In this document: piece after piece, positions 45,995 to 48,608 of the stretch
Numbering within the stretch: position 1 is the first letter of the stretch
Layout: each line of letters opens with the position of its first letter
Assembly: GCA_045564455.1 (NCBI GenBank)
Contig: JBJLHG010000002.1
Span: 39,877 to 103,876 of the forward strand
Direction: 5' to 3'
Length of the DNA stretch: 64,000 nt
From: Gammaproteobacteria bacterium
GTDB lineage: Bacteria > Pseudomonadota > Gammaproteobacteria > Magnimaribacterales > AG-339-G14
Position numbers and translations under genes: made by a program
The notes under the pieces: model-generated
The model's database searches: none
Told to the model about the DNA's origin: nothing
Seen by the model: the letters and a program-made list of their open reading frames with translations, nothing else

Positions 45995-47167
45995 ATGAAA
46001 ATCACTAAAACGGATGGTCCTCCAAAGGACGTAGTTTACTTTGATGAAGTATACAAAGATGATGAATTAGACCTGTCTGCAAAAGACGTAGAAGATGTTG
46101 CTGAAATTTTTCAAACACCTCTTACCGGATCTTATAATTGGGACTATACGGTAGCTGACAACCGAATTAAGAAACTTTACGAATTAGGAAAAGAGTTAAA
46201 TTGGAATGGTTCTATTGATCTGGATTGGGATTATAATCATCCGAAAGATGAACCTCTTACGGGCATAGAAGAAGTTACTTTGCCTCATGAAGAGCTTGAT
46301 GCTTGGAAAAATCTATCTGACGAAGAAAAAATAGAGTTTGATAGACATGAAACTGGGGAAGTTCTTAGCCAATTTTTACATGGAGAACAAGGCGCTCTTT
46401 TAGTTGCCTCTCAGTTGGTAAGTTGTGCGCCAACATTTAATGCAAAAATGTATGCAGCTTCACAAACATTTGATGAAGCAAGGCATGTTGAAGTGTTTAA
46501 TAGATATCTTCAGGAAAAAGTGGGCTTTCATTATCCAATTAATCCGAATCTTAAAGCTTTATTAGACAAAATCCTTACAGATAAAAGATGGGATTTAAAG
46601 TTTATTGGTATGCAAATCATAATTGAAGGCTTAGCCCTTGCTGCTTTTACCAACATGAAGCTATCTGCCAGAGATCCCCTTTTAAAGACTCTATTGCATT
46701 ATGTGATTAGAGATGAAGCTAGACATGTCACCTTTGGAATAAATTATCTTGAAGACTTTGTCAAAACACTTTCTCCTGAAGAAGTTGAAGATAGAGCTCA
46801 ATTTGCTTATGAAGCCTGTGTTATTTCTAGAGATAGATTGATTAATACCAAAGCAATGTCTAAATATTTGAAAATGACTGATGAAGAAGTTAGAGATTTT
46901 CAATTAAGTAATGGTGCAATGGATCAGTTTAGAAGCTTTCTATTCTCAAGAGTGATGCCTAATTTGAAAAAAATTGGTCTGCTAACCGATTCAGTCAGAC
47001 CAAAATATGAAGCCCTAGGAATACTAGAATATGAGCATGCGCCAAGTGATTTTGAAATAGATTGGGCAGAAATTACAAAGCCATTAGAATCTTCTGAACA
47101 GGTTAGAGCTGAGTCTGATGAAATGTTAGCCGAAATTCTTAAAGCTCAAGAAGCAGCAAACAGTTAA
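45995..47167 (+). CDS. Ferritin-like diiron-carboxylate enzyme of unknown substrate
   Basis: Ligand pattern E (SQFLHGEQG), DEARH, E (IIEGLA), DEARH. Confidence 0.85.
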   Translation: MKITKTDGPPKDVVYFDEVYKDDELDLSAKDVEDVAEIFQTPLTGSYNWDYTVADNRIKKLYELGKELNWNGSIDLDWDYNHPKDEPLTGIEEVTLPHEELDAWKNLSDEEKIEFDRHETGEVLSQFLHGEQGALLVASQLVSCAPTFNAKMYAASQTFDEARHVEVFNRYLQEKVGFHYPINPNLKALLDKILTDKRWDLKFIGMQIIIEGLALAAFTNMKLSARDPLLKTLLHYVIRDEARHVTFGINYLEDFVKTLSPEEVEDRAQFAYEACVISRDRLINTKAMSKYLKMTDEEVRDFQLSNGAMDQFRSFLFSRVMPNLKKIGLLTDSVRPKYEALGILEYEHAPSDFEIDWAEITKPLESSEQVRAESDEMLAEILKAQEAANS

Positions 47168-47179
47168 AAATAATTTCTA

Positions 47180-47794
47180 ATGGGTGCTTTGATTGATTTA
47201 AATTCAATTAAATCAGCACCCATTGATGATACCTTTTATCCTTTTTTCTCAGTCCCAAATTGCATCTCAGATGATGACAAATCGCTAGCTAAAGAATTTC
47301 CTAATCTCGAAAAAGGTGGAAGCTACCCAAGCGATATGCCTGGTCTTTCAGACAAAATTAAAAAGCTTATTTCAGAAATTGAAAGCGACGCAATGAAAGA
47401 GGTCCTTTCTGAAAAGTTTCAAGTTGATTTATCCAATACCGAAGTTATCACAACTCTAAGAGGTTACTCAAGAATGAAGGATGGAAAAATCCACAGTGAT
47501 TCAAAATCAAAAGTTTTAACTTTTCTTTTGTACTTGAATGAAGAATGGAATAACGAAAAAGGATTATTAAGAATGTTGAAGAATAATTCTGATTTAGAAG
47601 ATTTTATTGAAGAAATTCCAGCCTCTTTCGGAAGTTTAGTTGTATTCAAAGTAACTGAAAATTGTTGGCATGGCTTTCATCCGGTAGAAGGCAAAAGACT
47701 ATCCATGCAAATGAATTACGTAAAAAAAGAGTCCGCTTCAAGTCATAAAATAAGGCATGGTTTAAGTTCATTTATAAAAAAGCTTTTTAGTTGA
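47180..47794 (+). CDS. 2-oxoglutarate/Fe(II)-dependent oxygenase
   Basis: HxD (IHSD), LLYLNEEW, distal His (CWHGF), 2OG-binding RxS (RLS). Confidence 0.85.
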   Translation: MGALIDLNSIKSAPIDDTFYPFFSVPNCISDDDKSLAKEFPNLEKGGSYPSDMPGLSDKIKKLISEIESDAMKEVLSEKFQVDLSNTEVITTLRGYSRMKDGKIHSDSKSKVLTFLLYLNEEWNNEKGLLRMLKNNSDLEDFIEEIPASFGSLVVFKVTENCWHGFHPVEGKRLSMQMNYVKKESASSHKIRHGLSSFIKKLFS

Positions 47795-47804
47795 AAACTA
47801 CCTT

Positions 47805-48608
47805 GTGAGTAAAATTAGCATTGGCATTGATTTTGGTATAACTAATACTGATTTAGTTACAGCCCATCATGATCAGATTTCTTATTCAACTTTCTCTTCC
47901 GAAAAGGTAAGTGAAAATTATCTGAAGAAAATACTTTTGGAAGCGAATTTAAATATTAACGATATAGAAACAATTGGCGTTACGGGTGGTAGACATAACG
48001 ATCTCCCAAATGAGATTGATAACGTGCTTATTGCCCACTTTAATGAGATAGACGCAATTGGAAGAGGTGCTAAAGCCTTAAAAAAAGACTCAAGTAGTAA
48101 TTTTCTTGTTGTTAGTTGCGGCTCTGGAACAGCTTGTGTCCTTGGCAATGATGAAGGTTATGTTCATATTGGAGGAACTGGGCTTGGCGGAGGAACAATT
48201 AGAGGGTTATGTAAGTTATTATTTGGCGAGGATGATCCTGAAAAAATAAATTCTTTATCCATGAATGGAGACGTAACAAAAGTTGATCATATTCTTTCAG
48301 ATGTTGTTTCTGGTCCGATTGGCAACCTTCCGAAAAATTCAAGCGCAGTAAACTTTGGAAAAGGCTTTTCATTTGAACCAAACAATTCTGACTTAGCAGC
48401 TGGGGTAATAAATATGGTTGCGCAAACTATTTTAAGAACTGCGGTCATGAGTGCAATTTCTTCTGGTGTAAGTGAGGTAGTGATTATTGGTAGAACTCCT
48501 AAATACAGCTTACTTTCTAATATTTTAGAAGAGGGATTTAATTTATATAATTTGAATTGCGAATTCATTGAAAATGGAGAATATGCAATCTGTTTAGGAA
48601 CGATATAA
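47805..48608 (+). CDS. Type II (Fumble/CoaW-like) pantothenate kinase
   Basis: IGIDFGITNT, VTGG, NEIDA, SCGSGT, GGTGLGGGT, DHILSDV, AVNFGK. Confidence 0.8.
   Translation: MSKISIGIDFGITNTDLVTAHHDQISYSTFSSEKVSENYLKKILLEANLNINDIETIGVTGGRHNDLPNEIDNVLIAHFNEIDAIGRGAKALKKDSSSNFLVVSCGSGTACVLGNDEGYVHIGGTGLGGGTIRGLCKLLFGEDDPEKINSLSMNGDVTKVDHILSDVVSGPIGNLPKNSSAVNFGKGFSFEPNNSDLAAGVINMVAQTILRTAVMSAISSGVSEVVIIGRTPKYSLLSNILEEGFNLYNLNCEFIENGEYAICLGTI

Follow-up and report, generated by a model that had tools for sequence, protein, structure and literature searches.

The closest described relatives of the three proteins considered here come from different systems: the ferritin-like dimetal enzymes R2lox and aldehyde-deformylating oxygenase (ADO) and the arylamine N-oxygenases AurF and CmlI; the 2-oxoglutarate (2OG)-Fe(II) oxygenases PasI and PolD; and the pantothenate kinases (PanK) CoaW of Staphylococcus aureus and PanK1-3. 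Nucleoside-antibiotic pathways use a "cryptic phosphorylation" logic, which offers a model for a 2OG oxygenase paired with a kinase. The Pfam family AurF (PF11583) is broad and also takes in the DnfA- and TsnB7-type enzymes, which are N-hydroxylases (PMC11160463). In PanK3, R207 and S195 hydrogen-bond pantothenate (PMC8366970). SAR86, a lipid-degradation specialist, lacks the synthesis of both pantothenate and vitamin B12 (PMC3358033). Here we describe a locus at which genes for relatives of all three kinds of protein lie side by side, in a 64,000-nucleotide stretch of DNA (the window) from the gammaproteobacterial assembly GCA_045564455.1 (contig JBJLHG010000002.1, positions 39,877 to 103,876 of the forward strand). 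A preliminary description had presented the genes for the diiron protein, the 2OG oxygenase and the kinase as one operon joining two O2-activating iron enzymes to the synthesis of coenzyme A (CoA). We favour another reading, to which we assign a probability of roughly 0.6: the three genes lie next to one another in a streamlined SAR86 genome and form a transcription unit at best, not a dedicated pathway, and they came to adjoin each other through tight packing and the swapping of a cassette.

Results

Gene order in relatives of the locus

The genome is that of a SAR86-like gammaproteobacterium, and the nearest named homologues of all three proteins come from "SAR86 cluster bacterium". About 100 loci encoding relatives (numbered with the prefix L) were examined. 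Some 70 of them belong to other taxa, namely Alcanivorax (61% identical), Halieaceae, other Pseudomonadales, Myxococcota, Caulobacterales, SAR324, Binatia, Actinomycetota and others, and were covered over an 8-kb neighbourhood. Throughout one SAR86 subclade the order CobS-CobT-diiron is constant and co-directional, and the kinase gene is always found further downstream in the same orientation. The content of the interval between the diiron and kinase genes differs from lineage to lineage. The trio with the 2OG gene occurs only in loci of the window type and in L010, L095-L097, L098-L100 and L033. In L011 the kinase gene comes directly after the diiron gene with nothing between them; in L009, L015, L016 and L027 a gene for an S8 peptidase on the opposite strand is interposed (800 aa in L009:7156-9558); and in L001-L008, L017 and L019 the interval holds four to five unrelated genes (beta-helix/NosD, Bax1-I, DUF305 and others). 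The segments L001-L008:7073-12634 and L009:7156-9558 are occupants of a flexible islet between the two genes. Among more distant SAR86 loci, L020 and L022 show the order thioesterase-SDR-diiron without CobS or CobT, and in L037 and L048 the diiron gene is flanked by dnaB/alr and pyrG/kdsA. The most persistent SAR86 neighbour of the diiron gene is a tesB-like acyl-CoA thioesterase gene.

None of the approximately 70 loci from other taxa has a 2OG, PanK, CobS or CobT gene within 8 kb of the diiron homologue. ORFs were called with a GC3 filter in about 70 loci and clustered, and 90 immediate neighbours of the diiron gene were scanned against Pfam; no partner family was conserved, none being found in more than three of the 90. 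TetR regulators, zinc-dependent alcohol dehydrogenases, acyl-CoA synthetases, SDR proteins and thioesterases recur only loosely near the diiron homologues, TetR regulators adjoining them in 14 loci. Eight Streptomyces loci (L067, L075, L076, L078, L080, L087, L088 and L093) contain two divergently transcribed diiron paralogues, with a TetR gene nearby in seven of them.

ORF calling confirmed the coordinates, the common direction and the gaps of 12 and 10 nt given for the three genes in the preliminary description. These gaps had been taken to define the unit. However, with a GC content of about 33% and a coding share of about 90%, the window has a median same-strand gap of 2.5 nt, and 68% of such gaps are of 20 nt or less. 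The spacing of the trio is no tighter than this norm and, since short gaps are typical genome-wide, it is uninformative. This bears on the idea of a single three-gene pathway operon, in which the two O2-activating iron enzymes would tailor or degrade an acyl-CoA, a lipid or a pantothenate-like substrate, in step with the supply of CoA by the kinase or with a phosphorylation that it performs. Such an operon would account for co-directional genes 10 to 12 nt apart between one promoter and one terminator, and for the retention of the trio in at least four SAR86 lineages; yet gaps of this size are ordinary in this genome, and the linkage is missing in most SAR86 lineages and in every other taxon sampled. 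The preliminary description had itself held that linkage confined to one lineage, together with a lack of co-expression, would imply accidental packing; as the trio is confined to one SAR86 subclade, the pathway is already largely refuted on these terms. Together with the results on recombination, transcription and the kinase pocket given below, these data make the three-gene pathway highly improbable in our judgement.

A recombining segment beside the rRNA operon

Comparison of the window with L095 revealed a sharply bounded mosaic. The DNA of the two loci is 96-100% identical from CobS to a point 45 nt into the 2OG gene (position 47224), only 60-82% identical between 47225 and 48629, and identical again from 48630, that is, from the T-tract of the terminator into the 5S rRNA gene. 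In keeping with this, the diiron proteins are 100% identical and dS in the flanks is 0.08-0.13, whereas the 2OG proteins share 73% identity (dS 1.7) and the kinases 65% (dS saturated). When the window is compared with L010, the pattern is reversed: dS amounts to 1.6-2.7 in the flanks, but to 0.44 for the 2OG gene and 0.63 for the kinase gene. The abrupt loss of identity at 47225 and its recovery at 48630 argue that the 2OG-kinase segment recombines separately from the diiron gene. Judged from these alignments, the segment is a cassette that is swapped by homologous recombination independently of the diiron gene. Two metagenome runs (X20 and X21) contain a related 2OG-kinase cassette (about 96-98% identical) at a depth of 30-64, whereas diiron contigs reaching 95% identity have a depth of about 5, a contrast which suggests that the cassette is shared by strains with more divergent flanks. 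All five genes (CobS, CobT, diiron, 2OG and kinase) are under purifying selection, with dN/dS values of 0.03-0.11 (0.03 for the diiron gene, against L010).

These observations are compatible with the following arrangement. A conserved, stand-alone and well expressed diiron gene with its own, probably leaderless, promoter borders a variable, recombination-prone site that extends to the rRNA operon. In this lineage the site is occupied by a 1.4-kb cassette made up of a PolD/PasI-like 2OG oxygenase gene and a type II PanK-like kinase gene. The recombination anchors by means of which the cassette is swapped between lineages would be the conserved flanks: the diiron gene plus the opening 45 nt of the 2OG gene at one end, and the 5S rRNA gene at the other. 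The conserved linkage beyond close relatives and the shared history that a one-pathway operon should display are both lacking: the trio is confined to one SAR86 subclade, and the diiron gene and the 2OG-kinase cassette differ in history. The functional coupling of two oxygenases to CoA synthesis put forward in the preliminary description does not agree with this mosaic history, with the variable site or with the lack of linkage outside the subclade. The variable site could also be read as a defence islet; this was rejected, defence-system and phage libraries having given no meaningful match for the three proteins.

A narrower proposal is that the 2OG oxygenase and the kinase form a functional pair, the kinase phosphorylating a small molecule (pantothenate-related or a sugar acid) and the oxygenase acting on the phosphorylated intermediate. 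Their exchange together as one 1.4-kb cassette with sharp borders, and the conserved gap of 10-13 nt between their genes, would be in line with such a pair. Nevertheless, with the conserved flanks as recombination anchors the two genes should move together in any case, and most SAR86 lineages have the kinase without an adjoining 2OG gene and with the same H121/A110 pocket.

Promoter, terminator and transcripts

The promoter and the single terminator described earlier are both present in the sequence. Upstream of the diiron gene, the -10 element of a TTGACA-17 nt-TAGATT site ends 6 nt before the ATG, and a Shine-Dalgarno sequence is absent. Promoter-like matches occur in the region at chance frequency (12 found against 11.1 expected in shuffles). 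The layout of -35, -10, 6 nt and ATG without a Shine-Dalgarno sequence is kept in four further lineages (L010, L011, L098 and L033) despite divergence of the spacer sequence, which supports a real promoter; the diiron gene is thus probably transcribed from this site into a leaderless mRNA. In the sister lineages L001 and L017, a Shine-Dalgarno sequence is found in place of the leaderless layout. RNA contigs also begin upstream of the promoter, at 45822 and 45866, and span the CobT-diiron spacer, so that some read-through from CobT takes place.

At the other end of the trio, a stem of six G+C-type pairs between an A-tract and a T-tract (A-tract/GCCAGC-atga-GCTGGC/T-tract, 48609-48636) could be read directly from the sequence. 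It follows the stop codon of the kinase and stops 8 nt short of the 3' end of the 5S rRNA gene; as these two genes converge on it and share it, it is bidirectional. The terminator scan did not report a hairpin at these positions, probably because the A and T tracts lengthen the stem. The terminator sequence is kept in L010, and L095 has a different hairpin in the same layout.

Expression was assessed from assembled metatranscriptome contigs, to which divergent alleles are not recruited and whose depth is a poor measure of abundance. The diiron gene has a contig depth of 10-45 in six metatranscriptome runs. Contigs cross the diiron-to-2OG junction in four runs (X1, X2, X5 and X7, with lenient matching), among them record 19 of X5, which covers 46908-47386 at a depth of 38. 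By comparison, the 2OG and kinase gene bodies have a contig depth of only 2-6, about 5-10 times below the diiron gene, a difference that alleles too divergent to be recruited may partly explain. No contig was seen across the 2OG-to-kinase junction among the assembled contigs. The co-expression that the preliminary description had proposed to look for was therefore observed across the first junction, as a three-gene pathway would have it, while the depths further downstream point weakly to a lower transcript abundance beyond the diiron gene. It is plausible that the three genes share one transcription unit.

The diiron protein and the CobS-CobT pair

The three family assignments made from the sequence in the preliminary description proved essentially right, each protein passing the corresponding Pfam model (AurF, 2OG-FeII_Oxy_3 and Fumble). 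For the diiron protein, the AurF score is 48.3 bits against a gathering cut-off of 29.6. The diiron ligand set E, DEARH, E, DEARH that had been pointed out is present: the motifs E131, D160-E161-A-R-H164, E211 and D240-E241-A-R-H244 show little or no variation across 27 homologues, and E131, E161, H164, E211, E241 and H244 are the putative ligands. Two E...ExxH motifs on a four-helix bundle place the protein in the ferritin-like diiron carboxylate superfamily. The AlphaFold2 model is all-helical (pLDDT 85), and its fold matches in Foldseek are R2lox, the R2 subunit of ribonucleotide reductase, ADO and acyl-ACP desaturase, all of them remote (TM-score of at most 0.6). When the family profile was compared with the PDB, the best matches were R2lox (5.6e-11) and ADO (3e-10), and AurF and CmlI were not among the best 60. 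The corresponding equivalog models are far from their cut-offs, with 20 bits against 223 for TIGR04059 (ADO) and 33.5 bits against 194 for NF006200 (R2lox).

Three possibilities were considered for this protein and set aside. Transfer of function from solved structures was rejected as only remote matches are available. A later start codon was rejected as well, the N-terminus MKIT..DGPP being conserved in homologues and the next methionine lying far inside. Finally, an N-oxygenase of the AurF/CmlI type was dismissed in view of the profile matches and of the residue four positions before the second ExxH glutamate. We take this position to correspond to the extra histidine ligand H223 of AurF, without a direct alignment to AurF; the window protein has V237 there and each of the 27 aligned homologues has V, I or L, so that the position is aliphatic throughout the family. 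DnfB and DnfC, the partners of the PF11583 N-hydroxylases, are absent at this locus.

The family is large, comprising 2121 cluster representatives at 50% identity (E<=1e-3), and several of its members are natural fusions. In proteins of about 1400 aa (P0161, P0165, P0178, P0197 and P0267), the diiron domain is joined to a fatty acyl-AMP ligase (FAAL), an acyl carrier protein (ACP) and a thioester reductase; others carry a UbiB kinase (P0150 and P0159), a PaaE-like NAD(P)H reductase (P0266 and P0239) or a TetR domain. From the fusions with a PaaE-like reductase we infer a catalytic, electron-consuming oxygenase, and those with FAAL, ACP and thioester reductase, taken with the affinity to R2lox and ADO, point to a long-chain acyl or aldehyde substrate. 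The protein is probably an O2-activating ferritin-like diiron (or Mn/Fe) oxidase of a large uncharacterised clade, and its substrate may be a long-chain fatty acyl or aldehyde compound. One half of the acyl or lipid hypothesis of the preliminary description, namely that the diiron enzyme acts on a fatty-acyl compound or a lipid, gains indirect support from these domain fusions; the other half, the coupling to CoA supply, does not find support. We found no paper in the literature on this diiron clade, on its natural fusions or on the three-gene linkage.

The constant neighbours of the diiron gene in the subclade raise the question of a true CobS-CobT-diiron module, in which the orphan AAA+/VWA pair, standing without CobN, would serve the diiron (or Mn/Fe) enzyme as a chaperone or metal-insertion machine. 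The pair lies directly upstream of the diiron gene and in the same direction in every locus of the subclade, both proteins fall below the NCBIfam equivalog cut-offs, and the RNA contigs starting at 45822 and 45866 span the CobT-diiron spacer. A role outside cobalamin synthesis would also suit SAR86, which does not make B12 (PMC3358033). In addition, in three Pseudomonadales loci (L039:2079-3431, L041:9081-10427 and L045:9097-10488) the gene that directly follows the diiron homologue on the same strand encodes a CoxE-type VWA protein, representing a second, independent VWA association. On the other hand, the diiron gene has its own conserved promoter, and the great majority of the approximately 70 other loci show no AAA+ or VWA neighbour. 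Orphan CobS/T pairs are, besides, present in phages and organisms that have no member of this diiron family, and families of the phage library match CobS and CobT. L020 and L022 keep thioesterase-SDR-diiron without CobS and CobT, and L037 and L048 are also without the pair nearby. L019 has the pair whereas L020 and L022 lack it, so that among SAR86 lineages it resembles an indel situated between the SDR and diiron genes. On balance we hold the module to be unlikely. The CobS-CobT pair is transcribed.

The 2OG oxygenase and the kinase

The 2OG protein scores 41.9 bits with Pfam PF13640 (cut-off 27). Residues H105-x-D107, H164 and R173-x-S175, which form the iron triad and the Arg/Ser pair for the C5-carboxylate of 2OG, are invariant in 18 homologues. 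The structures closest to its model (pLDDT 78) are PasI (9ei6, TM-score 0.76, E 1.6e-12) and PolD (9blq), ahead of prolyl hydroxylases, and PasI and PolD are also the best sequence matches. A second PasI entry (9ei7) holds a phosphorylated octosyl acid, 5-amino-6-hydroxy-octosyl acid 2-phosphate. This ligand, and a kinase devoid of the two pantothenate-contact residues, would fit the functional pair of oxygenase and kinase introduced above. However, identity of the 2OG model to PasI and PolD does not exceed 21-24%, and we treat this likeness as a lead rather than an assignment. Furthermore, a homologue with 54% identity and the same invariant residues (L101-L103:4328-6591) is encoded by a gene that overlaps the DsbA gene by 8 nt on one side and lies 4 nt from a GT9 heptosyltransferase gene on the other, with no kinase, a setting that hints at an envelope or lipopolysaccharide (LPS)-related role. 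This LPS-type context speaks against both the functional pair and the three-gene pathway, and we regard the former as improbable.

The kinase passes the Pfam Fumble model (64 bits, cut-off 28.5) but, with 176 bits, remains below the cut-off of 234 of the NCBIfam equivalog for type II PanK (NF009842). It aligns over its full length with S. aureus type II PanK (CoaW; 25% identity, E 1e-15), whereas matches to human PanK cover only residues 96-239, approximately. The phosphate-1 motif D9-F-G11-x-T and the catalytic E81 (E70 in S. aureus, E138 in PanK3) are invariant in 10 SAR86 homologues. By contrast, in all 10 of these aligned homologues H121 replaces R113 of the S. aureus enzyme and A110 replaces S102, the latter presumably equivalent to S195 of PanK3 according to the register of the GSGVS/GTGTS motif. 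Hence the arginine and serine that contact pantothenate, by which a type II PanK would be recognised, are not found in this kinase, His121 and Ala110 being in their place. The altered pocket makes a non-pantothenate substrate conceivable, as the three-gene pathway would allow, but it is equally altered, H121 and A110 included, whether or not a 2OG gene adjoins. The kinase also evolves rapidly: identity is 37-49% for most pairs of SAR86 lineages, and values of 65-87% are confined to the closest ones.

A salvage kinase is expected in SAR86 because the lineage lacks pantothenate synthesis. Most likely, the enzyme performs the first phosphorylation of CoA salvage with a substrate pocket that has diverged. 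Alternatively, it would not be an ordinary PanK and would phosphorylate another salvaged precursor (for example pantetheine, which is without the carboxylate) or act with the 2OG oxygenase on a phosphorylated intermediate; given the residues at the pocket, we see this as conceivable but doubtful. If true, it would imply an unrecognised route of CoA-precursor salvage in one of the most abundant bacteria of the surface ocean.

Features of the locus and its surroundings

The features are listed in Table 1. Upstream of CobS, the gene order comprises a gene for a tesB-like acyl-CoA thioesterase and then cysE, both on the minus strand. A TonB-dependent receptor gene (38647-41262) between gltD and the thioesterase gene is not present in the related locus L009 and represents a further local indel. 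The 16S-23S spacer (51760-52132, 373 nt) contains no tRNA gene, and ARAGORN found no tRNA in the whole window.

Table 1. Genes and sequence elements at the locus (positions in the window)
Feature	Position	Strand	Remarks
CobS-like AAA+ gene, orphan	43159..44151	+	Upstream context of the diiron gene, co-directional
CobT-like VWA gene, orphan	44148..45902	+	Directly upstream of the diiron gene
Promoter-like site TTGACA-17 nt-TAGATT	45960..45988	+	6 nt before the diiron ATG
Diiron carboxylate protein, ferritin-like	45995..47167	+	ORF of 390 aa; Pfam AurF PF11583
Small 2OG-Fe(II) oxygenase	47180..47794	+	ORF of 204 aa; Pfam 2OG-FeII_Oxy_3 PF13640
Putative recombination cassette: most of the 2OG gene, kinase gene and terminator stem	47225..48629		Identity drop against L095
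Type II pantothenate-kinase-like ASKHA kinase (Fumble family)	47805..48608	+	ORF of 267 aa, GTG start
Bidirectional intrinsic terminator	48609..48636		A-tract, GCCAGC/GCTGGC stem with ATGA loop (48614-48629), T-tract
5S rRNA	48645-48758	-	Convergent to the kinase gene
5S-23S-16S rRNA operon	48645-53666	-	Convergent; then tyrS

Discussion

The reading of the three genes as neighbours brought together by packing and cassette swapping has to be weighed against several points. The trio persists across lineages in which identity falls to 58-60% for the 2OG protein and to about 43% for the kinase, and neighbor-joining trees suggest that the 2OG gene may be ancestral at the site and was later lost or replaced; it follows that some selective advantage of the arrangement remains conceivable. 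Recombination moves the 2OG and kinase genes jointly, as it would a functional pair. Moreover, the expression comparison was drawn from assembled contigs that do not recruit divergent alleles, and the substrate roles given here to the three enzymes are ones that we infer. These points temper our preference for the packing of independent genes, which nevertheless accounts best for the variable site and the mosaic history.

On that preferred reading, the combination of two oxygenases with a PanK is of little consequence as originally posed, being a product of packing and of a variable site. The sharply bounded cassette next to the rRNA operon is in itself a clean example of gene-level recombination in uncultivated bacterioplankton. 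With more than 2000 clusters at 50% identity, the diiron clade is widespread; it is also well expressed and uncharacterised, and the fusions with FAAL, ACP and thioester reductase provide a direct route to its substrate. SAR86 being a lipid-degrading specialist, the enzyme may contribute to the turnover of lipids or hydrocarbons in the sea. The altered pocket of the kinase, for its part, leads to the question of which CoA precursor this abundant vitamin-B5 auxotroph salvages.

Compared with known systems, the diiron protein shares the Pfam family, the fold and the six core ligands with the arylamine N-oxygenases AurF and CmlI, but its gene is not within a natural-product cluster. The 2OG oxygenase has in common with PasI and PolD, which act in peptidyl-nucleoside antibiotic pathways, and more distantly with prolyl 4-hydroxylases, a double-stranded beta-helix and the HxD...H and RxS motifs; unlike those of PasI and PolD, the locus is without a nucleoside-antibiotic cluster, and the 2OG gene is widespread in SAR86. 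The kinase resembles S. aureus CoaW and PanK1-3 in belonging to the Fumble family and in its DxGxT phosphate-1 motif and catalytic glutamate. With R2lox and ADO, the diiron protein shares a ferritin-like four-helix core and an E, ExxH, E, ExxH carboxylate-bridged dimetal site, although it is only 12-21% identical to them, with a TM-score of at most 0.6, and its 390 residues include about 35 disordered ones at the N-terminus and additional helices at the C-terminus. Both R2lox and ADO bind long-chain fatty ligands, in agreement with the FAAL-ACP-thioester reductase fusions found among the relatives of the diiron protein.

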